A stretch of DNA of 64,000 nucleotides from a virus (taxonomy: Duplodnaviria > Caudoviricetes). A program made the translations under genes and the position numbers. Positions 4,460 to 33,385 of the stretch are shown in pieces (the stretch's first letter is position 1; every line of letters begins with the position of its first letter). Below the pieces are notes generated by a model. It ran no database searches. It saw only the letters and a program-made list of their open reading frames with translations, and was not told the origin of the DNA. The stretch is taken from IMG/VR virus record IMGVR_UViG_3300027365_000007; one strand, given 5' to 3'.

Positions 4460-5818
4460 TTATTGTTTCTCGCTCCGAGTTTCTACTAGACTAGGAGTTG
4501 TTTCTACTAAACTTAGTGTTATTTCTGTTAAACTAGGCGTTGTTTCTACTAGACTAGGCGTTGTTTCTGTTAAACTAGGCGTTGTTTCTGTTAAACTAGG
4601 TGTGGTCCAAGATAATGCACTGTGATTTATTAATGCACCTGTTAACAAGTTGAGATCATCTGGTATTTTAGTAATTAATGCGTCATTGGAACCTTGTCCT
4701 TCCGAATTTTGATTCCCAACTGCCACATAGCCCCCATCGTTGCTTTGGATAACTGAGTAATAATTATCACTATTTGAACCACCCAATCCTTTTTGACTAA
4801 CCACATTAAGATTGGCGTCGTATTTAGTAATTAATGCGTCGTAATTACCTTGTCCTTCCGAACTTTGATTCCCAACTGCTACATAGCCCCCATCGTTGCT
4901 TTGGATAACTGAGTAATAATTATCACTATTTGAACCACCCAATCCTTTTTGACTAACCACATTAAGATTGGCGTCGTATTTAACAATTAATGCGTCGTAA
5001 CTACCTTGTCCTTCTGATTGCTGATAACCAACAGCCACATATCCACCATCGTTGGTTTGGATAACTGAACGATAATAATCATTAGTTGTGCCGCCTAACC
5101 CTTTTTGACTAACTACGTTAAGATTGGCGTCGTATTTAACAATTAATGCGTCATTGTAACCTTGTCCTTCCGAACCTTGATACCCAACTGCTACATAGCC
5201 CCCATCATTGGTTTGTATAACTGAGTAATAATTATCACTATTTGAACCACCCAATCCTTTTTGACTAACCACATTAAGATTGGCGTCGTATTTAGTAATT
5301 AATGCGTCGTAATTACCTTGTCCTTCCGAACTTTGATTCCCAACTGCTACATAGCCCCCATCGTTGCTTTGGATAACTGAGTAATAATTATCACTATTTG
5401 AACCACCCAATCCTTTTTGACTAACCACATTAAGATTGGCGTCGTATTTAACAATTAATGCGTCGTAACTACCTTGTCCTTCTGATTGCTGATAACCAAC
5501 AGCCACATATCCACCATCGTTGGTTTGGATAACTGAACGATAATAATCATTAGTTGTGCCGCCTAACCCTTTTTGACTAACTACGTTAAGATTGGCGTCG
5601 TATTTAACAATTAATGCGTCGTAACTACCTTGCCCTTCCGAATTTTGATTCCCCACAGCCACATATCCACCATCGTTGGTTTGGATAACAGATCTATAAT
5701 AATCATTAGTTGTGCCGCCTAATGTGCTTACAATCCATGATTTAAATTCCACCACGGTCATACCTTTTGATAATTGAACACTGTTGATCCCAACATTATA
5801 AATTTTTATACCTGACAT
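4460..5818 (-). CDS. tandem-repeat beta-propeller protein (7 x 52 aa), probable virion or adhesin protein
   Basis: Seven near-identical GG..D...SVIQ.NDGGYVAVG...DALI.KYD units followed by TPSL(T/V)ET repeats. Confidence 0.75.
   Translation of the reverse strand: MSGIKIYNVGINSVQLSKGMTVVEFKSWIVSTLGGTTNDYYRSVIQTNDGGYVAVGNQNSEGQGSYDALIVKYDANLNVVSQKGLGGTTNDYYRSVIQTNDGGYVAVGYQQSEGQGSYDALIVKYDANLNVVSQKGLGGSNSDNYYSVIQSNDGGYVAVGNQSSEGQGNYDALITKYDANLNVVSQKGLGGSNSDNYYSVIQTNDGGYVAVGYQGSEGQGYNDALIVKYDANLNVVSQKGLGGTTNDYYRSVIQTNDGGYVAVGYQQSEGQGSYDALIVKYDANLNVVSQKGLGGSNSDNYYSVIQSNDGGYVAVGNQSSEGQGNYDALITKYDANLNVVSQKGLGGSNSDNYYSVIQSNDGGYVAVGNQNSEGQGSNDALITKIPDDLNLLTGALINHSALSWTTPSLTETTPSLTETTPSLVETTPSLTEITLSLVETTPSLVETRSEKQ
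4481..4606 (-). repeat. 21-bp coding tandem repeat, 6 copies
   Basis: TTPSL(T/V)E heptads. Confidence 0.9.
4670..5719 (-). repeat. 156-bp coding tandem repeat, about 7 copies
   Basis: Visible near-identical units; units 2-3 recur as units 5-6 (468-bp period). Confidence 0.95.
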
Positions 5819-13010: not shown

Positions 13011-13307
13011 ATGAATATTTTTAAGAAATTGTTTTCTAAGCTCAGTAGACAACGACAAGTACAACCATGTGACCATGTGTTTTTTCCATATTATGATGAA
13101 ACGGTGAATCGCAGATACCCAATAGGACAACGTTGTGCTTTATGTCATAAATTTAACTCTAATGAAGAACTTGGTATAAGTTTTGATCATATTGACATTG
13201 AAAAGAAACATAGACCTGAAAATGTCACCTGTGTTCACGGAAACATAAATGGAGTACCGGCATGTCCGCCCGGTGAGAACTGCTATTCCTCTAAGAAGCG
13301 TAAATAA
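13011..13307 (+). CDS. Cys-rich hypothetical protein
   Basis: 98 aa; CDH, CxxC and further Cys. Confidence 0.65.
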   Translation: MNIFKKLFSKLSRQRQVQPCDHVFFPYYDETVNRRYPIGQRCALCHKFNSNEELGISFDHIDIEKKHRPENVTCVHGNINGVPACPPGENCYSSKKRK

Positions 13308-13427
13308 GATGTGACCGTTGATAAGTATGAAACATCGAAAGCAATTTAGAACAAAAGACAGAGTGAGGAAAAAATTGCATCCTAGATAAAAATCATATAT
13401 GATGTTTTAGAAAACCAAAAAAAGAGC

Positions 13428-13456
13428 TTGACAGGATGTATAAATAGCTTTACACT
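13428..13456 (+). promoter_or_regulatory. sigma70-type promoter of tRNA operon 1
   Basis: TTGACA 13428-13433, 17-nt spacer, TACACT 13451-13456. Confidence 0.85.
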
Positions 13457-13554
13457 ATGTTCAAGATAAAAAATTACAGAGTTTTAGAGACAATGTTGTC
13501 TCTTCTATAAATAACATTAACTTAGAAAGAAAAGAATTTAAGAGAGAAACCAAA

Positions 13555-13674
13555 ATGACTATTTTCGCACAGATGCACAAACAAGAACAGTTTAAGGGAA
13601 GTGAATTCCCCCGTGCAATTGTATCGTCAGATAGCATCTGTGGTTGGTCACAAGATGACTATGAGGGTTTCTAG
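13555..13674 (+). CDS. leader peptide 1 (39 aa, MTIFAQMHKQEQFKGSEFPRAIVSSDSICGWSQDDYEGF)
   Basis: ATG 13555 after AGAGAG, TAG 13672-13674; frame and stop position kept in both copies. Confidence 0.75.
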   Translation: MTIFAQMHKQEQFKGSEFPRAIVSSDSICGWSQDDYEGF

Positions 13675-13713
13675 CTTATGATTAAGTAAACAACACATAA
13701 GCAAAGTAAGATA

Positions 13714-13749
13714 AAGAAACCCTTCTATTGAGAAGGGTTTCTTAGTTTT
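13714..13749 (+). terminator. attenuator terminator 1
   Basis: AAGAAACCCTTCT-ATTG-AGAAGGGTTTCTT 13-bp stem then AGTTTT; the 5' arm can alternatively pair with AGGGTTTCT 13664-13672. Confidence 0.85.
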
Positions 13750-13764
13750 AGATAAAAAGAATTT

Positions 13765-13840
13765 GCGGGCTTAGCTCAGTTGGTAGAGCGTCGTCCTTCC
13801 AAGTCGATGGTCATCGGTTCGAATCCGATAGTCCGCTCCA
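13765..13840 (+). tRNA. tRNA-Gly(TCC)
   Basis: Cloverleaf, loop CT-TCC-AA, encoded CCA. Confidence 0.9.
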
Positions 13841-13864
13841 ATTTAAAATTTGTGGAAGGTAAGT

Positions 13865-14134
13865 ATGGATGTCAAAGTAAATCCTAAGATTGCTTCATTT
13901 TTAAAATTCGTAATGTGTGGATACATTAAAGTTGGCGATGAAATATGGTCAACAGGGACACGAGGTGAAAAGAAGCTAACGAAGTCACAAATTAAGTCAA
14001 TCGAAAAGACTGGTATTGTAAGTTTTGATTGGCAAGAGGATTGTATTAAGTTACAATCAACGGTAGATTTGGTACGTGTTTCGCCTATTGGCAAAGTACC
14101 ATATAAGACGTTTAACGTAGAATATAACGAATAA
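13865..14134 (+). CDS. hypothetical protein, paralogue of 19847..20128
   Basis: VNP..ASFL.F.M.GY.KVG motif; GGAAGG RBS. Confidence 0.75.
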   Translation: MDVKVNPKIASFLKFVMCGYIKVGDEIWSTGTRGEKKLTKSQIKSIEKTGIVSFDWQEDCIKLQSTVDLVRVSPIGKVPYKTFNVEYNE

Positions 14135-14140
14135 GTTTTA

Positions 14141-14230
14141 GGAGGGGTGGCAGAGCGGCTGAATGCAGCGGTCTTGAAAACCGCCGAGCCCTTCGGGGCT
14201 CCGTGGGTTCAAATCCCACCCCCTCCGCCA
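14141..14230 (+). tRNA. tRNA-Ser(TGA)
   Basis: Long variable arm, GCGGT-CTTGAAA-ACCGC, CCA. Confidence 0.95.
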
Positions 14231-14238
14231 AAATTTAA

Positions 14239-14309
14239 GCCTTGGGTTCTGGGAACAGGTTGGGCTCCAAACCTGACCGTGCAGGGTTCGATTCCTTGAC
14301 AAGGTGCCA
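14239..14309 (+). tRNA. non-canonical tRNA-Trp(CCA)
   Basis: 71 nt; 3-nt D-loop, 7-bp anticodon stem, loop CT-CCA-AA, G discriminator, CCA. Confidence 0.75.
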
Positions 14310-14317
14310 TATAAAAT

Positions 14318-14391
14318 GGCGGGTTGGCCGAGTGGCTAGGCGGTGGACTGCAAATCCACCTACGGGGGTTCGATTCCCTCACTCGTCTCCA
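14318..14391 (+). tRNA. tRNA-Cys(GCA)
   Basis: GTGGA-CTGCAAA-TCCAC, U discriminator, CCA. Confidence 0.9.
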
Positions 14392-14424
14392 AACAAAAAA
14401 GTTTGAGAAAATAGAAAAAAGTAC

Positions 14425-14453
14425 TTGACAGGAAGCATAAATAAGATTACACT
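14425..14453 (+). promoter_or_regulatory. sigma70-type promoter of tRNA operon 2
   Basis: TTGACA 14425-14430, 17-nt spacer, TACACT 14448-14453. Confidence 0.85.
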
Positions 14454-14552
14454 TAACTCAAGTATTAAAAAATGCAGAGTTTTAGAGGCAATGTTGTCTC
14501 TTCTATAAATAACATTAACTTAGAAAGAGAAGAATTTAAGAGAGAAACCAAA

Positions 14553-14675
14553 ATGACTATTTTCGCACAGATGCACAAACAAGAACAGTTTAAGGGAAGT
14601 GAATTCCCCCGTGCAATTGTATCTTTTGATCGTGAGATCATGGATAGTGCGAAAGGGGAGATTAAGGGTTTCTAG
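14553..14675 (+). CDS. leader peptide 2 (40 aa, MTIFAQMHKQEQFKGSEFPRAIVSFDREIMDSAKGEIKGF)
   Basis: ATG 14553, TAG 14673-14675; 3' part of track ORF 14472..14675. Confidence 0.75.
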   Translation: MTIFAQMHKQEQFKGSEFPRAIVSFDREIMDSAKGEIKGF

Positions 14676-14716
14676 CTTATGATTAAGTAAACGACACATA
14701 AGCAAAGTAGATAAAG

Positions 14717-14749
14717 AAACCCTTCCACTGAGAAGGGTTTTTTAGTTTT
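14717..14749 (+). terminator. attenuator terminator 2
   Basis: AAACCCTTC-CACTGA-GAAGGGTTT plus U tract; the 5' arm can alternatively pair with AAGGGTTTCT 14664-14673. Confidence 0.85.
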
Positions 14750-14763
14750 AGATAAAAGATTTT

Positions 14764-14840
14764 GGAACGGTAGCTCAGTTGGTAGTAGCAGTGGTGTGAA
14801 GTACCACGTGTCGATGGTTCGAATCCATCCCGTTCTACCA
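14764..14840 (+). tRNA. tRNA-Phe(GAA), unusual anticodon loop
   Basis: GTGGT-GTGAAGT-ACCAC, CCA. Confidence 0.8.
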
Positions 14841-14883
14841 AATTAGGCTTTACGCCATGTTCTTTAAAAATTATTTATATTTA

Positions 14884-14960
14884 GCGGCATTAGTTCAGTT
14901 GGTTAGAACGCTACACTGTCACTGTAGAGGTCGCGGGTTCGAGTCCCGCATGTCGCGCCA
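14884..14960 (+). tRNA. tRNA-Asp(GTC)
   Basis: CTACA-CTGTCAC-TGTAG, CCA. Confidence 0.95.
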
Positions 14961-15075
14961 AATTCAAAACCAAATTTGACAAGGGTTTGGGTAATAAGTT
15001 AGAGTGATATAACCATCACTTACCTTGTCGAAATTTATTTCTATAATTGATAAAAAAGTAAATCAATTATAACGA

Positions 15076-15167
15076 AGTGAAGTGGGTGAGCGGTCAAAAC
15101 CAGCACACTGCTAATGTGCCGACCCGCTTTTGCGGGTCCGAGGGTTCGAATCCCTCCTTCACTGCCA
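15076..15167 (+). tRNA. tRNA-Ser(GCT)
   Basis: GCACA-CTGCTAA-TGTGC, long variable arm, CCA. Confidence 0.9.
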
Positions 15168-15173
15168 GTTTCA

Positions 15174-15250
15174 AGTGGCTTAGCTCAGTTGGCTAGAGCG
15201 GTGCCCTTACAAGGCATAGGTCGATGGTTTGATCCCATCCGCACCGACCA
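15174..15250 (+). tRNA. tRNA-Val(TAC), probably pseudo
   Basis: Anticodon arm intact; acceptor stem largely unpaired; T-loop TTTGATC. Confidence 0.6.
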
Positions 15251-15259
15251 TTTTTTTCT

Positions 15260-15335
15260 GTCCCGTTCGTCTAGTTGGTCAGGACACTGGCCTTTCACGT
15301 CAGTAACAGGGGTTCGAGCCCCCTACGGGACACCA
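15260..15335 (+). tRNA. tRNA-Glu(TTC)
   Basis: CTGGC-CTTTCAC-GTCAG, CCA. Confidence 0.9.
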
Positions 15336-15358
15336 AATTTTGATAGTAACGACTATCT

Positions 15359-15435
15359 AGGAATGTAGCTCAGTTGGTGAGAGCGTTCGGCTGATAACCG
15401 AAAGGACGCAAGTTCGAGTCTTGCCATTCCTACCA
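15359..15435 (+). tRNA. tRNA-Ile(GAT)
   Basis: TTCGG-CTGATAA-CCGAA, CCA. Confidence 0.95.
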
Positions 15436-15470
15436 AATTTTTCACTACCTGATGTATTCCGGGTAGTCTC

Positions 15471-15546
15471 TGGGGTGAGGTGTAATGGTTGCACATCGGC
15501 CTTTTAAGCCGAAAGGAGTAGAGTTCGATTCTCACCACCCCAACCA
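15471..15546 (+). tRNA. tRNA-Lys(TTT)
   Basis: TCGGC-CTTTTAA-GCCGA, CCA; T-stem has a bulge. Confidence 0.85.
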
Positions 15547-15554
15547 TTTTATTT

Positions 15555-15630
15555 GTCTCGTTCGTCTAGTTGGTCAGGACACTAGGCTTTCACCCTAGAA
15601 ATGTTGAGTTCGAGCCCCTACGGGACGCCA
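15555..15630 (+). tRNA. tRNA-Glu(TTC) second copy, degenerate T-arm
   Basis: CTAGG-CTTTCAC-CCTAG; T-stem mispaired. Confidence 0.6.
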
Positions 15631-15653
15631 AATTTTCATAGATGTAATTGTCA

Positions 15654-15682
15654 TTGAAGAATATCGTGCAATATATTATACT
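15654..15682 (+). promoter_or_regulatory. possible internal sigma70 promoter
   Basis: TTGAAG, 17-nt spacer, TATACT. Confidence 0.45.
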
Positions 15683-15713
15683 GTAGTTAATGAAAAGAAA
15701 AGGACGGTGTTAA

Positions 15714-16232
15714 ATGAATTATTTACAAAACCATTGTTATTGTACAGAATCGAACTGGGATAGATCATCTTACAGTTGTAGAAATATGGTTTGGTTCCAT
15801 TCCTATATGAATGAAGACAAAACCGATTGGGCGAACCTTGTTGATGAAAAGAGTGAAAGTTTCATTGACTATAATAGAATGAAAGTCCATAATGAAGTTT
15901 CTGAAGAAATGAATCTTCCAGTAATTACAGATCCTGAGAGGTTTCGAAAGGATGTGGTAAATTTAAAACCACACGTTCTTCGTTGGTTGGAAGATAACGT
16001 TGATGATCGCGATGATGAAGAATGTATTAAAGGCTGGTGTATCGGCTCTATTAAGTATAGATCAAGTAACGATACTATCATGACAATATTCTTTCATCGC
16101 GAAACAGATGCTATGAAATTTATCAAGGAATTTAGTGTAAATAAAAAACCTGTTTTTTACCATAATTATTTTGATGATGTTAAAAAGATTTTAAATCTGG
16201 AAACAGGTAAATATAGGAGTTTCGGAGTGTAG
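15714..16232 (+). CDS. hypothetical protein
   Basis: 172 aa; 3' end overlaps the pseudo-tRNA-Ala. Confidence 0.7.
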   Translation: MNYLQNHCYCTESNWDRSSYSCRNMVWFHSYMNEDKTDWANLVDEKSESFIDYNRMKVHNEVSEEMNLPVITDPERFRKDVVNLKPHVLRWLEDNVDDRDDEECIKGWCIGSIKYRSSNDTIMTIFFHRETDAMKFIKEFSVNKKPVFYHNYFDDVKKILNLETGKYRSFGV

Positions 16233-16298
16233 CGCAGTTGGGAGAGCGATGCCCTTGCAAGGCATAGGTCGTCGGTTAGATCCCGTCCTTCTCCACCA
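16224..16298 (+). tRNA. tRNA-Ala(TGC), probably pseudo
   Basis: ATGCC-CTTGCAA-GGCAT; acceptor out of register; T-loop TTAGATC. Confidence 0.55.
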
Positions 16299-16305
16299 TT
16301 TTTGT

Positions 16306-16383
16306 TGGGATGTCGCCAAGTTGGTCTAAGGCATTCGGTTTTGATCCGAATATTCGGGGGTTCGAATCCCACCACTCCAACCA
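16306..16383 (+). tRNA. tRNA-Gln(TTG)
   Basis: TTCGG-TTTTGAT-CCGAA, CCA; single mismatches in acceptor and T stems. Confidence 0.75.
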
Positions 16384-16410
16384 AATTTTGCTTTAAGAGT
16401 AAATAAAGAT

Positions 16411-18972
16411 ATGTCCAGAAAACAAAAACTTATTGATAACCTATCTTATTTAGAAAACGATGTATATAATAAGAGTGAAGTTACAAGCCGTGATTATAAG
16501 CCCTACTATCAATATAAGATTGGGTTCCTTGACGAACAATTTTTTCCGGTGTACGGCTATCTGAATTTTGGTTATTTACCTCATTCATCAAAGTATTTCT
16601 TATTCAAGGATACCAAAGGTAGGGAAGTTATTCTTTACAAGGGATCGCAAGGCAAACCCGAAACAGACAGTTTCTTTAGAGCTTATCGATACGATAAGAA
16701 CGGTGATTTCATTTATGACAACTCACCACTTAGCACACCATTCATGTCATCCAATCAGAGAATTAATTACATTGATTGTTGTAGCACAAACTACATCGTC
16801 GCTCAGATCAAAACATTGGGTGATCCTAATACATACAACTATTATCTTATTCGAACTAACTCAAGTTACGATACATCTGTATGGCAGAATGTTTTGGACA
16901 TAACAAGTTCCATGGGGTTCAGTGCATCGGTTGCAAATAATATTACTATCGATGAAAAAGAACAAAAGCTTTATGTTATTGCGTCAGAAAATGCGAGTGG
17001 TGGGTTAACAAGTTTTGGTACTATAAAATTAAAAATATATAATCTTAATAATGGAAACTATATCAACGAATATTCTATATTTGATATGCCTACTGACTTA
17101 AATTATAGTGCCTATTCTACATCAACTAAAGCTCTAAGCTACGGTGGTCTTCGTACAGTATTTAATTATAATACTGGTGATCTATTAGTAAGCCTTAAAA
17201 CCATCATTTATTATGATATAAACGGTGGCAGAACTTATATTACAAAAGATATTAATCTTTCCTTAAACCTTAGTGATACCTTAAGGCAAACTGGCACAGG
17301 AACCTATAGTTATTATATACCTATTAACTCCACTAACTATGACTTCTTTAATAACGGCATTGGTATTGGCTCTTGGAATAGTGGTGGTAGACATGACGCT
17401 TATTCTTTCAATGAATATGATAACTCTATCTATTACATTGATAGATCAACGTGGATAGATACGGGATTCAACCTAAGACAACGTGATTTCAGTAGTCCAC
17501 TAACAAGCTCTGGATACTTCTTAGATTCTTTACCAGAAATTTATTCTACACAAAGACATAACGTACCCGATTCATCACCTTGGTCAAAAACCTGTTATAA
17601 AAAATGTATAATAACTGACGACTACTATATTGGCTATGGAAATAGCACAAAATATGGTGTTACTTATTTTATATCGAAATACAATATAAATGGACAAGAT
17701 ATAGAATTCATAGCAGGTCAGTGGAGAATATTAGATGATATAAACCTGAACAGTAATATTAATCTAAAAGAACTGGATAGATGGTTTATAACAAAGAATG
17801 GAACAACAGTAGAGTACTACATTTATGACAATTCATTTAATGTGTTTAAAATAGATATAGATAGTAACTTTAATATAATATACACTGATATGGGATTACA
17901 GTTACCTACTCCTAGCTCTTCATCTTATGGTAGGCAGAATCAATGGGCAATAGACTTTTCTAACAATAAGGTATATTGGGTTGTGTTAGATTATACCGAT
18001 TCTCATAAAGCAAAAATTATATGGACAAATAATAATGGATCATCATGGGACTTAGGACCGGTTCTTAACAGTACTCAAGCTAGTGGTTCAGCTTCACAGT
18101 TTAGTGATGGAAATGCTAGAGCATATGGGTCTAACGGCTCTAATATGTTTATGGAGAATAATTTAGTCTATGTAAACTTTACATATCTATCTGTCGGTGG
18201 AGCATATGGAACGCCATACGAACAATACGATAGTGCTACTAATACGCTGACTACATTCTCTAATTCAACAAACCCTTATAACGGTGGTAACTCAATTGGG
18301 TACAATAGTCGAATGAGTTATTATATAAGTGATACAAACATTGGTTATTATTCTATGCGCTTTTATAGTCAATCGGTGCTTTCTAATTTATTGAATGGGA
18401 ATTCGTTGAGTACACTGTATACTAATGTATCCACTTCATCTGGATTGGGCGCAACTCTTTTAAACTTTCCAGTATTCCTAGATGGTTATTATTATCAAAC
18501 AGCTACTACTGATGTGGCATTGGAAGCGAACGCAGATAACTTTGTTTATCTTGAGACAGTAGATAACACTACACTAAACGCTTATTCTAGTGTAACTGAT
18601 TTAAACAACACGTCTAATCGTATTAAGATTGCAAAAATAACAACTGATTCGGCAAACCCGATATCTCAAGAATTATATGATTTGAGTTTCAATGATACAA
18701 CAGCGCCGAAGTATATATTTAAAAAAATAAAACTAGAAAATGTTTCTCTTTCTCAAGGACAATCAATCACCGTACTATCAAGTGACTATGGGTTAAATGA
18801 TTATGATAGGTATCGAGTTATGGACTTCAGAAGTGATGGAACTGGTGACTATTTTTTAAATAGCAATGTAGAGTACAGTTTGAGTTTTGATAAAAGTCAG
18901 ATAGTCATTACATCACAAGAGAGTGGAACACAAACATATACATTTTTAATACACGTATATTTGGGGATATAA
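16411..18972 (+). CDS. large beta-rich virion protein (tail fibre / receptor-binding candidate)
   Basis: 853 aa, S/T/N/Y-rich; N-terminal YLENDVYNKSEV motif and C-terminal domain shared with the next gene. Confidence 0.55.
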   Translation: MSRKQKLIDNLSYLENDVYNKSEVTSRDYKPYYQYKIGFLDEQFFPVYGYLNFGYLPHSSKYFLFKDTKGREVILYKGSQGKPETDSFFRAYRYDKNGDFIYDNSPLSTPFMSSNQRINYIDCCSTNYIVAQIKTLGDPNTYNYYLIRTNSSYDTSVWQNVLDITSSMGFSASVANNITIDEKEQKLYVIASENASGGLTSFGTIKLKIYNLNNGNYINEYSIFDMPTDLNYSAYSTSTKALSYGGLRTVFNYNTGDLLVSLKTIIYYDINGGRTYITKDINLSLNLSDTLRQTGTGTYSYYIPINSTNYDFFNNGIGIGSWNSGGRHDAYSFNEYDNSIYYIDRSTWIDTGFNLRQRDFSSPLTSSGYFLDSLPEIYSTQRHNVPDSSPWSKTCYKKCIITDDYYIGYGNSTKYGVTYFISKYNINGQDIEFIAGQWRILDDINLNSNINLKELDRWFITKNGTTVEYYIYDNSFNVFKIDIDSNFNIIYTDMGLQLPTPSSSSYGRQNQWAIDFSNNKVYWVVLDYTDSHKAKIIWTNNNGSSWDLGPVLNSTQASGSASQFSDGNARAYGSNGSNMFMENNLVYVNFTYLSVGGAYGTPYEQYDSATNTLTTFSNSTNPYNGGNSIGYNSRMSYYISDTNIGYYSMRFYSQSVLSNLLNGNSLSTLYTNVSTSSGLGATLLNFPVFLDGYYYQTATTDVALEANADNFVYLETVDNTTLNAYSSVTDLNNTSNRIKIAKITTDSANPISQELYDLSFNDTTAPKYIFKKIKLENVSLSQGQSITVLSSDYGLNDYDRYRVMDFRSDGTGDYFLNSNVEYSLSFDKSQIVITSQESGTQTYTFLIHVYLGI

Positions 18973-21220: not shown

Positions 21221-21297
21221 AGGAAGTTAGCTCAGTTGGCTAGAGCATTCGACCGATAATCGAAGGGTCGCTGGTTCGAGTCCAGCACTTCCTACCA
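21221..21297 (+). tRNA. tRNA-Ile(GAT) second copy with C33
   Basis: TTCGA-CCGATAA-TCGAA, CCA. Confidence 0.85.
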
Positions 21298-21302
21298 TTT
21301 TC

Positions 21303-21379
21303 TGGGGCTTAGCTCAGTCTGGTAGAGCATCTGCTTTGGGAGCAGAGGGTCGTAGGTTCAATTCCTGCATCCCCGACCA
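21303..21379 (+). tRNA. tRNA-Pro(TGG)
   Basis: TCTGC-TTTGGGA-GCAGA, CCA. Confidence 0.9.
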
Positions 21380-21384
21380 ATTTC

Positions 21385-21462
21385 AAGGGGGTCGTTTCCT
21401 TTAAGGAAGCACCGTATGATCCGAATCGGTTCCTGTGTAGAGTACAGGGGTTCCCTTTTTTT
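21385..21462 (+). ncRNA. tRNA-like cloverleaf RNA without CCA
   Basis: 7-bp closing stem and three hairpins, located between two tRNA genes. Confidence 0.5.
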
Positions 21463-21479
21463 ATTTCAATTAGTTTTGT

Positions 21480-21556
21480 TGGGGTATCGCCAAGTGGACT
21501 AAGGCATCGGGTTTTGATCCCGATATTCGAAGGTTCGAATCCTTCTGCCCCTACCA
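21480..21556 (+). tRNA. tRNA-Gln(TTG) second copy
   Basis: TCGGG-TTTTGAT-CCCGA, CCA. Confidence 0.9.
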
Positions 21557-22063
21557 TTATCTTTTAACTCTTTTTACTGAAAGTATCCTAGAAGTGTTAG
21601 GGTTTATTATTACTTCCTTTTCATATTTTATCGTGGAAATAACATCAGGATCGTCCAAGAATGCAATAAAAGCTAGAGGCACAAATATAACATCGCTAGT
21701 GTTTATTTTGAAAGTGATTAAATAACCAACATCACCTAAGACCTTAGAAAAATTTTCAGCCACGGTCTTAGAATATGAACATGAACTGTACGATATACCT
21801 TTAGTGTTAGTTTTTTCTTTTTCCCGTGACGAAATTTCTTTTTTTATGGTGATCCATTCTTCTTCATCGTAGTCATCATTCCAAAAGTATACTCCACGGT
21901 AAACCGTATCGGGTATTTTCTCACGATATTCATCATTTACTTTCTTGAAGTATGAACTATTCTCTATATAGTTCAGTAAGTCATGAAACTTATTTTTATT
22001 ACTGATGAATTCTTTAAATAGTTGTTGAAATTTCGTGTCAGATTCTATATCATGTATATTCAT
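21557..22063 (-). CDS. ADP-ribosyltransferase, R-S-E (VIP2/Alt-like) type
   Basis: VYRG, YSSCS...A..F and EKEVII motifs. Confidence 0.7.
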   Translation of the reverse strand: MNIHDIESDTKFQQLFKEFISNKNKFHDLLNYIENSSYFKKVNDEYREKIPDTVYRGVYFWNDDYDEEEWITIKKEISSREKEKTNTKGISYSSCSYSKTVAENFSKVLGDVGYLITFKINTSDVIFVPLAFIAFLDDPDVISTIKYEKEVIINPNTSRILSVKRVKR

Positions 22064-22090
22064 AGCTAATAAACCTTTTCTTATATTTAT

Positions 22091-22164
22091 TGAGGATTAG
22101 TGTCAGTGGCCTAACACACAGCGCTCATAACGCTGTACCACCAGTTCGAATCTGGTATCCTCGA
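22091..22164 (+). tRNA. tRNA with CAT anticodon (elongator Met or Ile2), CCA not encoded
   Basis: CAGCG-CTCATAA-CGCTG; no GGG/CCC initiator signature. Confidence 0.75.
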
Positions 22165-22188
22165 CTCATACCAATGGAGATAATAGAT

Positions 22189-29604: not shown

Positions 29605-29676
29605 GCTAGTTTTGCCGAGTGGTTAGGCAGCGGATTGCAAATCCGCCTACGAGGGTTCGATTCCCTCAACTAGCTC
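29605..29676 (+). tRNA. tRNA-Cys(GCA) second copy, CCA interrupted
   Basis: GCGGA-TTGCAAA-TCCGC; ends TCA instead of TCCA. Confidence 0.85.
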
Positions 29677-31927: not shown

Positions 31928-33385
31928 TGGGTATGAAACAGTTAACATAATTATACACTGTTTACCCATTATTATAACTTTTATATCACATATAAATATT
32001 ATTACTAAATAATTAAGAATAACTATTACAAAAACAATGATTTTAGTAGAAAGACACCAAATAGACAAAAAGCACCCATCCTTCAAGGAATGCGATTTCT
32101 TGAGTTATATAAGCAAAAACCTATATAATTCAGCTATCTATCATATACGTCAGTTCTATTTCAATAACAACACTTTTCTTAATCCTAAAGTAGTAAATGG
32201 TAAAACTATAAACTACTGGGTATTTGATAAAACCCAATTATATCACGAACTCAAGGACACGAAAGAATTCCGTACCAACGAGCACCCCGAATACAACGGA
32301 TATTCATGTAACACCAAAATCCTAAAACAAACTATGATACAAGTAAGTAGAGTATTCAAGGGATACAAGAAAGCACTAAAGACGTACTCTAATAACCCAT
32401 CAAAGTTTACAGGAAGACCTAAATTGCCAACTTATAAACAAAAGAATGGTAGAAATGAAGTGACAGTGCCAAAAGAAGCTATCTCTTTTGTTAAACACAA
32501 AGGTTATGCTAAAATAGCAAATACGGACATATTTGTTAAATTAGTAAATGTAACCGAAGAGACAACAAAAGAAATAAAGATAGTACCACGAGCCAGCCAT
32601 TATGAAATATTGGTTAGCTATGAAGCACCAGAAGCACAATTAAAACCGCAAAGCGGCAAACTAGCAGGTATAGATATTGGATTGAATAATTTAGTGGCGT
32701 TATCTTCAAATGATATAGCTATGAAGCCATCTCTCATTAACGGACGACCACTAAAATCAATCAACCAATACTATAATAAGAAAGCTGCTAAAATGAAGTC
32801 CTTATTGCCGAAAGATGTTTTTTGGAGTAAGGCACTTAGTCAATTGACTAGGAAGAGAAACAACAAAGTTCAAACTGAAATGCACAACATATCTACATAT
32901 ATTGTCAATGAATTAATCAAACACAATATAGATACATTGATAGTAGGTAATAATAAAGGAATGAAACAAGGAATTGGTATTGGTCGAAAAAATAACCAAA
33001 ATTTTGTGTCAATTCCTTTCCATAAGTTACGTAGGATGTTAGAATACAAATGCAAAAAGGCAGGTATCCATTACATAGAGACAGAGGAAAGTTATACCAG
33101 CAAGTGCAGTTTCCTTGATATGGAAGATATGCGTAAGCAGTCAGTATATAAAGGGAATAGAACACATAGGGGCTTGTTTATTGACTCGAATGGTAATGAG
33201 ATCAATGCTGACTTGAATGGAAGTTTGAACATAATAAGAAAAGTAGCTGGAAATGCATATTTTGTTTATCAAAATACGTCTGATCTAGTAGAGGGCTATG
33301 CCGTTAGTCCATTTAAAGTCACTGTCTAGTAATAGAATATACTTTATAAAGCAATTTGATATAATTTATATATTGAATTTCAAAC
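31928..33385 (+). mobile_element. IS200/IS605-like TnpB-only element (ends approximate)
   Basis: Left hairpin TGGGT..AAACAGT/ACTGTTT-ACCCA at 31928-31968; possible right end TTCAAAC near 33385; no TnpA. Confidence 0.45.
32037..33329 (+). CDS. tnpB: TnpB/InsQ RNA-guided endonuclease
   Basis: SKNLYN HTH, GIDIGLNN RuvC-I, EESYTSKC, NADLNGSLNI. Confidence 0.9.
   Translation: MILVERHQIDKKHPSFKECDFLSYISKNLYNSAIYHIRQFYFNNNTFLNPKVVNGKTINYWVFDKTQLYHELKDTKEFRTNEHPEYNGYSCNTKILKQTMIQVSRVFKGYKKALKTYSNNPSKFTGRPKLPTYKQKNGRNEVTVPKEAISFVKHKGYAKIANTDIFVKLVNVTEETTKEIKIVPRASHYEILVSYEAPEAQLKPQSGKLAGIDIGLNNLVALSSNDIAMKPSLINGRPLKSINQYYNKKAAKMKSLLPKDVFWSKALSQLTRKRNNKVQTEMHNISTYIVNELIKHNIDTLIVGNNKGMKQGIGIGRKNNQNFVSIPFHKLRRMLEYKCKKAGIHYIETEESYTSKCSFLDMEDMRKQSVYKGNRTHRGLFIDSNGNEINADLNGSLNIIRKVAGNAYFVYQNTSDLVEGYAVSPFKVTV

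Follow-up and report, generated by a model that had tools for sequence, protein, structure and literature searches.

The window analysed here is a stretch of 64,000 nucleotides from a virus of the Caudoviricetes (IMG/VR record IMGVR_UViG_3300027365_000007). It belongs to a contig of ~222.6 kb, is AT-rich (34.6% GC), and its source looks like a large uncultured phage. We identified 14 transfer RNA (tRNA) or tRNA-like genes between 13.4 and 16.4 kb, all on the + strand, using ARAGORN and the Rfam tRNA model, both of which were also run with relaxed thresholds (-ps80 for ARAGORN, E<=1 for Rfam). These genes form two operons, each preceded by a leader of ~330 nt (13428-13750 and 14425-14750). The two leaders are near-identical and show the same order of elements: a sigma-70-type promoter, a 5' hairpin, a short open reading frame (ORF), a post-stop hairpin and an intrinsic terminator, after which come the tRNA genes. 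We propose that each leader is a leader-peptide transcription attenuator of the trp/ilv style, which would sense when ribosomes are slow to decode the codons that the tRNAs of its own operon serve. We give this reading a probability of about 75%.

All elements of the leaders lie on the + strand. Leader 1 starts with a promoter (TTGACA, 17 nt, TACACT; 13428-13456), the hexamers of which recur in leader 2 (14425-14453). The transcript has a 5' hairpin (13486-13503), present both in the minimum-energy fold and in the RNAalifold consensus. Segment 1 (AGAAACC, 13545-13551) immediately precedes the start codon. Complementary to segment 2, it is the default-off partner of that segment in the minimum-energy fold and in the RNAalifold consensus. 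The ORF has 39 codons followed by TAG (13555-13674). It begins, like that of leader 2, about 90 nt past the promoter, and a Shine-Dalgarno-like motif (AAGAGAG) is found 9-15 nt 5' of the ATG, in the style of other ribosome-binding sites in this phage. Codons 24-37 (S S D S I C G W S Q D D Y E, 13624-13665) make up the variable part, hereafter cassette 1, as delimited by the sequence and by the comparison of the leader copies. Segment 2, the antiterminator strand (GAGGGTTTCT, 13663-13672), extends from the final sense codons into the stop codon, of which it includes the first base. The post-stop hairpin (GCTTATG ... CATAAGC, 13674-13702) is nested within the antiterminator, is recovered by folding and is invariant in the four homologous leaders that we describe below. 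The intrinsic terminator (13714-13750, arms 13714-13743) comprises segments 3 and 4, which fold into a 13-bp stem followed by TTAGTTTT.

Leader 2 (14425-14750) has its segment 1 at 14543-14549, an ORF of 40 codons (14553-14675), a cassette at 14622-14666, segment 2 at 14664-14673, the post-stop hairpin at 14675-14703, and a terminator with a 12-bp stem and a U-rich tail (14714-14750, stem to 14743). In both leaders the terminator ends 15-20 nt 5' of the first tRNA gene. These two are the only terminator-like sites within 13200-16500, and we found no further promoter between terminator and tRNAs in the leaders of the window. An in-frame ATG at 14472, near the predicted transcription start, lengthens the leader-2 ORF to 67 codons, and this long form is the one used by a public gene call (P0001). 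Leader 1 has no equivalent upstream in-frame ATG.

Operon 1 encodes tRNA-Gly(TCC) (13765-13840), an ORF of 89 amino acids (13865-14134), tRNA-Ser(TGA) (14141-14230), a Trp-like gene (14239-14309) and tRNA-Cys(GCA) (14318-14391). An earlier note on this DNA had given its tRNAs as Gly(TCC), Ser(TGA), Trp(CCA) and Cys(GCA). The Gly, Ser and Cys genes are called by both ARAGORN and Rfam. The Trp gene is called by neither, which leaves a non-canonical Trp-like cloverleaf with the anticodon CCA at 14267-14269. The cloverleaf is the minimum-energy fold, and has a 6-bp acceptor stem, a D loop of 3 nt, the anticodon loop CUCCAAA, the T loop UUCGAUU, and an encoded GCCA end. The 89-amino acid ORF has no match in Pfam or PHROG, and no relative in IMG/VR.

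Operon 2 (14764-16383, genes called by ARAGORN and Rfam) encodes, in this order, Phe, Asp, Ser(GCT), Val(TAC)-like, Glu, Ile, Lys and Glu tRNAs, an ORF of 172 amino acids (15714-16232) without Pfam or PHROG match, and Ala and Gln tRNAs. Being inside operons that are gated under our proposal, the 89- and 172-amino acid ORFs would be co-regulated with the tRNAs. The Val(TAC)-like gene (15174-15253) was found by ARAGORN at the relaxed threshold only, and its Rfam match is restricted to model positions 8-63. Inspection by eye revealed no intact acceptor stem, and the gene shares 82% identity over 61 nt with the Ala(TGC) tRNA at 16224-16298. Judging from this similarity, it may have arisen as a paralogue of the Ala tRNA in which the anticodon changed, or may be a pseudogene. 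Operon 2 also contains, 3' of the Asp tRNA and 5' of Ser(GCT) (14976-15040), a promoter-like site (TTGACA, 18 nt, TAGAGT) together with an inverted repeat (GACAAGG ... CCTTGTC), which may be an internal promoter or a processing site.

The comparison of the two leaders draws attention to the cassette. The copies are 94-98% identical outside a region of ~42 nt and only 48% identical within it: the flanks share 153/158, 44/45 and 46/49 positions, the cassette 21/44 alignment columns. The leaders are a recent duplication, and nearly all differences between the copies fall in the cassette. This results either from replacement of the whole cassette at once, or from flanks that were kept alike while the cassettes were kept different, and both point to a function of the cassette. 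It is from this one duplication event that the description of the sensor as programmable derives.

The leaders can adopt alternative structures. In the untranslated full leaders, segments 1:2 and 3:4 are paired at minimum energy, and the folds are more stable than those of shuffled sequences (z of -5.8 for leader 1 and -4.7 for leader 2). In a nascent RNA ending at segment 3, segment 2 (13663-13672) pairs with segment 3 (13715-13724) in a 10-bp helix around the nested post-stop hairpin (-17.1 kcal/mol). For every leader tested, i.e., four homologous leaders (-16.6 to -19 kcal/mol) and likewise three analogous ones, this 10-bp antiterminator was the structure of lowest energy that the nascent RNA formed. 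When the footprint of a ribosome at the stop codon is masked, the terminator alone forms. RNAalifold retains the 1:2 pairing, the post-stop hairpin and the terminator in the alignment of the four homologous leaders, among which the 5' hairpin covaries: five of its six pairs are altered on both sides and are still paired. Insertions and deletions within the ORF of these leaders are all of 3 nt, those outside it of 1-2 nt, and the reading frame is kept. The last codons of the ORF are fixed because they are the exact complement of a terminator arm. The structural features of a ribosome-mediated attenuator that can be sought in silico were all found: an ORF with its ribosome-binding site, a terminator, a mutually exclusive antiterminator, and suitably placed codons related to the cargo.

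These codons were the subject of the earlier note, which had claimed that the cassette of leader 1 lists the codons of its own operon. Cassette 1 opens with TCG, TCA, GAT, AGC, ATC, TGT, GGT, TGG and TCA (13624-13650), exactly as read there. Five of its 14 codons are read by operon-1 tRNAs, namely TCG, TCA and TCA (Ser-UGA), TGT (Cys) and TGG (Trp-like), whereas the genome-wide fraction of such codons is 0.065 (binomial P=0.0014). If GGT is counted as well, the values are 6/14 and 0.117 (P=0.0034). Here and below, the null model is the codon usage of the phage in question. Among the 14-codon windows taken from all ORFs of the phage, 0.42% equal cassette 1 in this respect, and 0.55% hold Trp, Cys and TCR codons together. 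Thus, the match of cassette 1 taken alone is modest, with P between 0.001 and 0.008. Cassette 2 has 11 of 15 codons cognate to operon 2 (P=0.017), and the full leader-2 ORF 28 of 39 (P=2e-4); for the full leader-1 ORF and operon 1 we obtained only P=0.04. Pairings of a leader with the other operon were not significant. All tRNA species have at least one cognate codon in their own leader (4/4 in operon 1, 9/9 in operon 2).

Cys and Trp codons are indeed confined to leader 1, as the leader-2 ORF (14553-14675) lacks TGT, TGC and TGG. The position of the codons also agrees with what had been proposed: TGT-GGT-TGG (13639-13647) lies 18-26 nt 5' of the core of the antiterminator strand, GGGTTTCT (13665-13672). 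The last operon-1 codon (TCA, 13648) is 15 nt 5' of segment 2, i.e., about the distance of one ribosome leading edge, and none of the five codons after it (CAA, GAT, GAC, TAT and GAG) belongs to operon 1.

Two other contigs encode homologous leaders. The first (G001, IMG/VR contig 3300021979_000004, 218 kb) has a neighbouring 853-amino acid protein that is 93% identical to that of the window contig; the second (L024) is the metagenome contig OJDD01004269.1. Each has a single leader, which is of the leader-2 type and stands before a longer tRNA array that opens with Gly, Phe, Ala, Ile and Lys (Gly-Phe-Ala-Ile-Lys-Glu...). Their cassettes differ from that of leader 2 at a few codons, and the codons match their own operons (28/40, P=0.011 in G001; 21/40, P=0.015 in L024). 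In G001, an Asn tRNA goes together with AAT/AAC codons in the leader; the 17 tRNAs of the window do not include Asn, and neither of its leaders has an Asn codon. Since Gly(TCC) directly follows the leader-2-type leader in these relatives, the window looks like the result of an insertion between Gly and Phe. As far as the sequences tell, the inserted block looks like it comprises the 89-amino acid ORF, the Ser tRNA, the Trp-like gene, the Cys tRNA and a second leader copy, and the copy now heading the block has the Ser, Cys and Trp codons. G001 also encodes a second tRNA cluster (25-28.5 kb, with Asn and Leu tRNAs), in which we found no terminator or leader.

A tRNA-like element with a long variable arm was observed at the leader locus of G001 (L006, 3267-3349). 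It scores 41.5 bits with Rfam, and ARAGORN, with relaxed parameters, assigns it no amino acid and a four-base anticodon. Its loop can be read by eye as ACG (Arg), which would fit the CGC codon of that leader. We excluded this element from the statistics.

We found one more copy of leader 1, at 5001-5120 of a JGI contig (Ga0114983_1001571, L037), which is a strain of the same phage: it is identical to the window over about 900 nt save five substitutions. All five fall within 11 nt (13609-13619) of the constant region of leader 1, where they change FPRAIV into FSCGRV and add one TGT and one GGA codon. This patch resembles the G001 version and, on sequence grounds, looks like a small gene-conversion tract.

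Analogous leaders were searched for with a generic segment 2/3/4 pattern, and then with R1, a covariance model of the cores that takes no account of the content of the ORF. The same architecture was found in four other contigs (G002/L007, G003/L008, G004/L012 with L032, and G005/L026), and the core pairing of GGGTTTCT with AGAAACCC is common to leaders in otherwise unrelated contigs. In G003, 11 of the 15 codons just 5' of segment 2 are for Trp, Ser, Tyr, Glu or Pro, and the tRNAs that follow are Tyr, Pro, Pro, Ser, Trp, Ser and Glu. Leader A of G004 has codons for all ten tRNA species behind it. Two more leaders were identified by R1 before their ORF was read. Leader B of G002 has 17 Leu or Gln codons out of 34 and precedes Leu, Leu, Gln, Gln and Leu tRNAs (P=8e-13), and leader B of G004 has twelve consecutive Ile, Arg, Leu and Gln codons and precedes Arg, Leu, Leu, Gln, Ile and Leu tRNAs (P=3e-4). 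Thirteen of the 18 loci matched by the generic pattern were without the ORF-terminator-tRNA arrangement and were set aside as chance matches or ordinary terminators. They are seven near-identical GC-rich loci on contigs of ~43 kb (L010, L011, L013, L015, L017, L022 and L023), as well as L009, L014, L018, L019, L020 and L021. Matches of R1 without downstream tRNAs (L031, L033 and L035) were excluded from the counts.

We tested the match between leaders and operons over the whole family, using eight non-redundant leaders from six phage contigs. The combined Fisher P is 7e-19, and still 3e-16 when the two leaders of the window are removed. When leaders and operons were swapped, 9 of the 40,320 permutations equalled the true pairing. 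Finally, 53 of the 54 tRNA species have a cognate codon in their own leader. The expectation of the earlier note that cassettes should follow the content of the operons in related genomes is thus borne out: the two relatives with homologous leaders and the four contigs with analogous ones all carry codons of their own downstream tRNAs.

These elements suggest the following mechanism, in which we infer the translation of the ORF, the stalling of the ribosome and the direction of the response. RNA polymerase would start at the sigma-70-type promoter, and the short ORF would be translated while it emerges. A ribosome that reaches the stop codon would sit on segment 2, and segment 3 would then pair with segment 4, so that transcription would end at the U-tract before the first tRNA gene. 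The size of the ribosome footprint is established knowledge; if it applies to these leaders, a ribosome held on a cassette codon about 15-40 nt upstream (in leader 1, at or before about 13650) would leave segment 2 free. Free segment 2 could pair with segment 3 as soon as the latter is made, the terminator would not form, and the tRNA genes would be transcribed. In the absence of translation, segment 1 would pair with segment 2, and termination would be the default. The sensing codons of leader 1 would be TCG and TCA (Ser-UGA), TGT (Cys), TGG (Trp-like), and the GGA at codon 15 (Gly-UCC), those of leader 2 the codons for Phe, Asp, Ser (AGY), Glu, Ile, Lys, Ala, Gln and Val. The result would be a negative-feedback supply loop, in which shortage of a cognate aminoacyl-tRNA opens the gate and accumulated phage tRNA closes it. 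Such shortage might be caused by loss of host tRNAs, by anticodon nucleases, or by the mismatch in codon usage of a phage with 35% GC. The earlier idea of a sensor matched to its cargo, in which a stalled ribosome leaves the antiterminator strand free, fits every computational test that we ran (geometry, divergence restricted to the cassette, and relatives).

A number of observations weigh against this mechanism. The Trp-like gene was missed by ARAGORN even at -ps80 and by the Rfam tRNA model at E<=1. It lacks what marks a canonical bacterial tRNA, i.e., recognition by the model and by ARAGORN and a normal D arm, and it may be inactive. The Cys and Trp codons are single in cassette 1, unlike the runs of classical attenuators, which implies low sensitivity to mild shortage and is better suited to severe depletion. 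GGT is not cognate to the anticodon UCC by standard wobble, a caveat already raised in the earlier note, which also pointed, correctly, to GGA at codon 15. Operon-2 tRNAs recognise seven of the 14 codons of cassette 1, no tRNA recognises TAT, and the constant part of leader 1 is the better match to operon 2 (z of 2.6, against 2.2 for operon 1). The matched codons of leader 2 extend right to segment 2, where a stall should favour termination. Segment 1 is invariant in the four homologues, and because of this invariance the 1:2 pairing has no support from covariation. The window also encodes tRNAs that escape the proposed control: a second tRNA-Cys(GCA) (29605-29676), 88% identical over 58 nt to the one at 14318-14391, which stands behind a 214-amino acid ORF with no leader, and Ile, Pro, Gln and Met tRNAs at 21221-22165 without attenuator, which makes for ungated extra Ile and Gln tRNAs. 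The leader of G005 has codons for all ten of its own tRNAs, but as a whole it is not enriched in them (P=0.67), and between its terminator and the first tRNA lies a strong promoter-like site (TTGACA, 17 nt, TATAAT; L026, 1640-1670). Given this position 3' of the terminator, the tRNAs of G005 would receive constitutive input besides the gated one. The leader-1 cassette had no match in IMG/VR, and it has no independent homologue, only the copy in the near-identical strain L037. Finally, none of the RNA runs among the sequencing runs searched contains the window sequence.

Some of these points would be expected if the leaders were real attenuators or insulators that sense the general capacity for translation, or a phage or host factor, and if the match of cassette 1 resulted from chance and from the codon bias of the phage. 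The P values of leader 1 (about 0.001-0.008 for the cassette alone, 0.04 for the full ORF), the single Trp and Cys codons, the half of cassette 1 that is read by the tRNAs of the other operon, and the unenriched leader of G005 all go in this direction. Yet the null model already includes the codon usage of each phage, the swap test shows that the match is specific to the operon, and coverage extends to 53 of the 54 tRNA species. Moreover, the codon content of two leaders was predicted blindly and found, and the copies of the window diverge in the cassette only. We therefore regard a general sensor as unlikely. Less likely still is a cassette shaped by RNA structure, i.e., by pairing with the constant 5' part of the ORF or by a hairpin of its own, with a switch operated by folding or by an RNA-binding factor and codons that are by-products. 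The earlier note had described a hairpin within the cassette. It is present (-11.2 kcal/mol, with 9 of 200 shuffles as stable), but it is displaced in the minimum-energy fold of the whole leader, where GCATCTGTG (13634-13642) pairs with CACAGATGC (13568-13576). Cassette and constant 5' region contain perfect complements of 9 nt in leader 1 (P about 0.009) and 8 nt in leader 2 (P about 0.03), in different registers, which places the cassette under an RNA-pairing constraint too, and the stability of the whole leaders relative to shuffles (see above) is in line with this. The TGT and the GG of cassette 1 are inside the 9-nt helix, a further point against sensing by codons, since RNA pairing could account for this part of the cassette. 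It accounts for TGT, but not for TCG, TCA, TGG and TCA. In addition, inspection of G001 and L024 shows the pairing to be weak or absent there (4-5 bp), Rfam gave no riboswitch or T-box match, and structure leaves unexplained why insertions and deletions preserve the frame, why start and stop codons are invariant, and why codons and tRNAs match across unrelated leaders.

The least probable account, which we consider very improbable, is that the ORFs of 39 and 40 codons are functional micropeptide genes ended by a terminator, and that transcription of the tRNAs depends on read-through or on other promoters. Public collections list the ORFs as genes (P0001-P0003), and in three phages the C-terminal residues of the leader-2 type show fair conservation. 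These last codons are, however, set by complementarity to the terminator arm, whereas the changes at the N-terminus among homologues are mostly non-synonymous. The peptides match no Pfam or other family, the window offers no other promoter between terminators and tRNAs, and the function of a peptide does not predict a codon content specific to the operon. Attenuation by decoding of cargo-related codons remains our preferred reading.

If the leaders are such attenuators, they may be more than that. They could be modular, rewritable sensors of many tRNAs, in which the exchange of a cassette of ~40 nt re-targets the chassis. Phages might use them as a device of counter-defence or homeostasis that replaces any listed host tRNA lost catastrophically (by anticodon nucleases, host shut-off or codon mismatch), and that is switched off once decoding recovers. 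We regard this extension as possible, though on balance doubtful. If it is true, the occurrence of the GGGTTTCT/AGAAACCC core in unrelated phages would be the sign of a mobile regulatory module that moves together with blocks of tRNA genes.

Searches with the window and its proteins returned little. Most proteins of the window contig have no database relatives, and Pfam and PHROGs revealed nothing informative on the ORFs neighbouring the leaders. Among INPHARED phages, nucleotide searches for near and distant relatives returned no match to the window, and the adjacent 853-amino acid protein had no tblastn match. The exact 27-nt leader pattern had 0 matches in IMG/VR. In the search of sequencing runs, the window sequence was matched in DNA metagenomes only, with a subsurface metagenome as the best match. 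Contigs from the matching runs were mainly host tRNA look-alikes, and in some of low depth the end of the leader-2 terminator was joined directly to the sequence 3' of leader 1, just before tRNA-Gly. Elsewhere in the window, an ORF of 452 amino acids (4460-5818, - strand) consists mostly of tandem repeats (6 copies of a 156-nt period and 5 of a 21-nt period), and one of 430 amino acids (32037-33329) matches PHROG transposase families (phrog_506, E=1.5e-38), within a phage contig.

The reason for the presence of tRNA genes in phages has been a matter of debate for decades. To our knowledge, the regulation of these genes is essentially undescribed. According to recent papers (PMC10264068, PMC11464382, PMC11555353), phage tRNAs restore infection in hosts whose defences cleave the host's own tRNAs. 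If our proposal is true, these leaders are the first known case of tRNA genes transcribed on demand, in answer to the decoding deficit that they repair. Attenuation would be extended from the supply of amino acids to that of tRNAs, and its range of codon types from one-three to about ten; it would also no longer be confined to cells but include viruses. The leader ORF would then give, from sequence only, a read-out of the tRNAs that a phage treats as one functional unit, and its codons would help to validate odd tRNA genes, such as the Trp-like gene. The leaders would also provide synthetic biology with a compact, re-programmable and codon-specific sensor, and the duplicated pair is a natural cassette-swap experiment.

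Multivalent leader-peptide attenuators are known from the amino-acid operons of enterobacteria: the leaders of ilvGMEDA and ilvBN contain Ile, Leu and Val codons, and the thr leader Thr and Ile codons. The phage leaders resemble them in having a promoter-proximal short ORF with several types of regulatory codons, and exclusive antiterminator and terminator hairpins; read-through upon stalling is a feature of these known systems. They differ in their cargo, which consists of tRNA genes and not of biosynthetic enzymes, so that the output would replenish the very molecule that is sensed. They also differ in using up to about 10 codon types, mostly once or twice rather than in runs, and they have no sequence or Rfam relationship with ilv or thr leaders. 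With trpL, hisL, pheL and leuL they share the logic of four segments, in which segment 2 is hidden by a ribosome standing at the stop codon, and in which 1:2 pairing formed in advance makes termination the default. In contrast to these leaders, segment 1 of the phage leaders is placed at the ribosome-binding site and contains no regulatory codons, and the regulatory codons are grouped in an exchangeable cassette, for which the 5' part of the ORF is the pairing partner. None of the Rfam leader families (Trp_leader, His_leader, Phe_leader, Leu_leader and Thr_leader) was matched at the gathering score; the best match was to Phe_leader, with 24.7 bits against the 55 required (E=0.45).

Attenuators of genes of the translation apparatus are also known. 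The pheM leader of pheST (phenylalanyl-tRNA synthetase) works by leader-peptide attenuation and responds to the supply of charged tRNA, but it concerns one amino acid, a protein-coding cargo and a host gene, whereas the cargo here is a phage tRNA array. T-boxes bind one uncharged tRNA directly and need no ORF. Like them, the phage leaders would sense the status of specific tRNAs and choose between terminator and antiterminator for genes related to translation; unlike them, they would need a ribosome and could read many tRNAs at once. We found no T-box match in the window at the gathering score, nor in 13300-16500 at E<=1. Phage T5, in whose tRNA region short ORFs have reportedly been described, was considered as an analogue and rejected: the ORF before its Cys tRNA (T5.070), the only site checked, encodes a small protein of CxxC-type appearance, with no terminator after it. 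A full-text search of the literature revealed no paper on leader-peptide attenuation of tRNA genes. Relative to the known attenuators, the leaders described here are thus new in having tRNA genes as cargo, in a list of many codon types that resembles a census, and in a feedback that would act on the sensed molecule itself.

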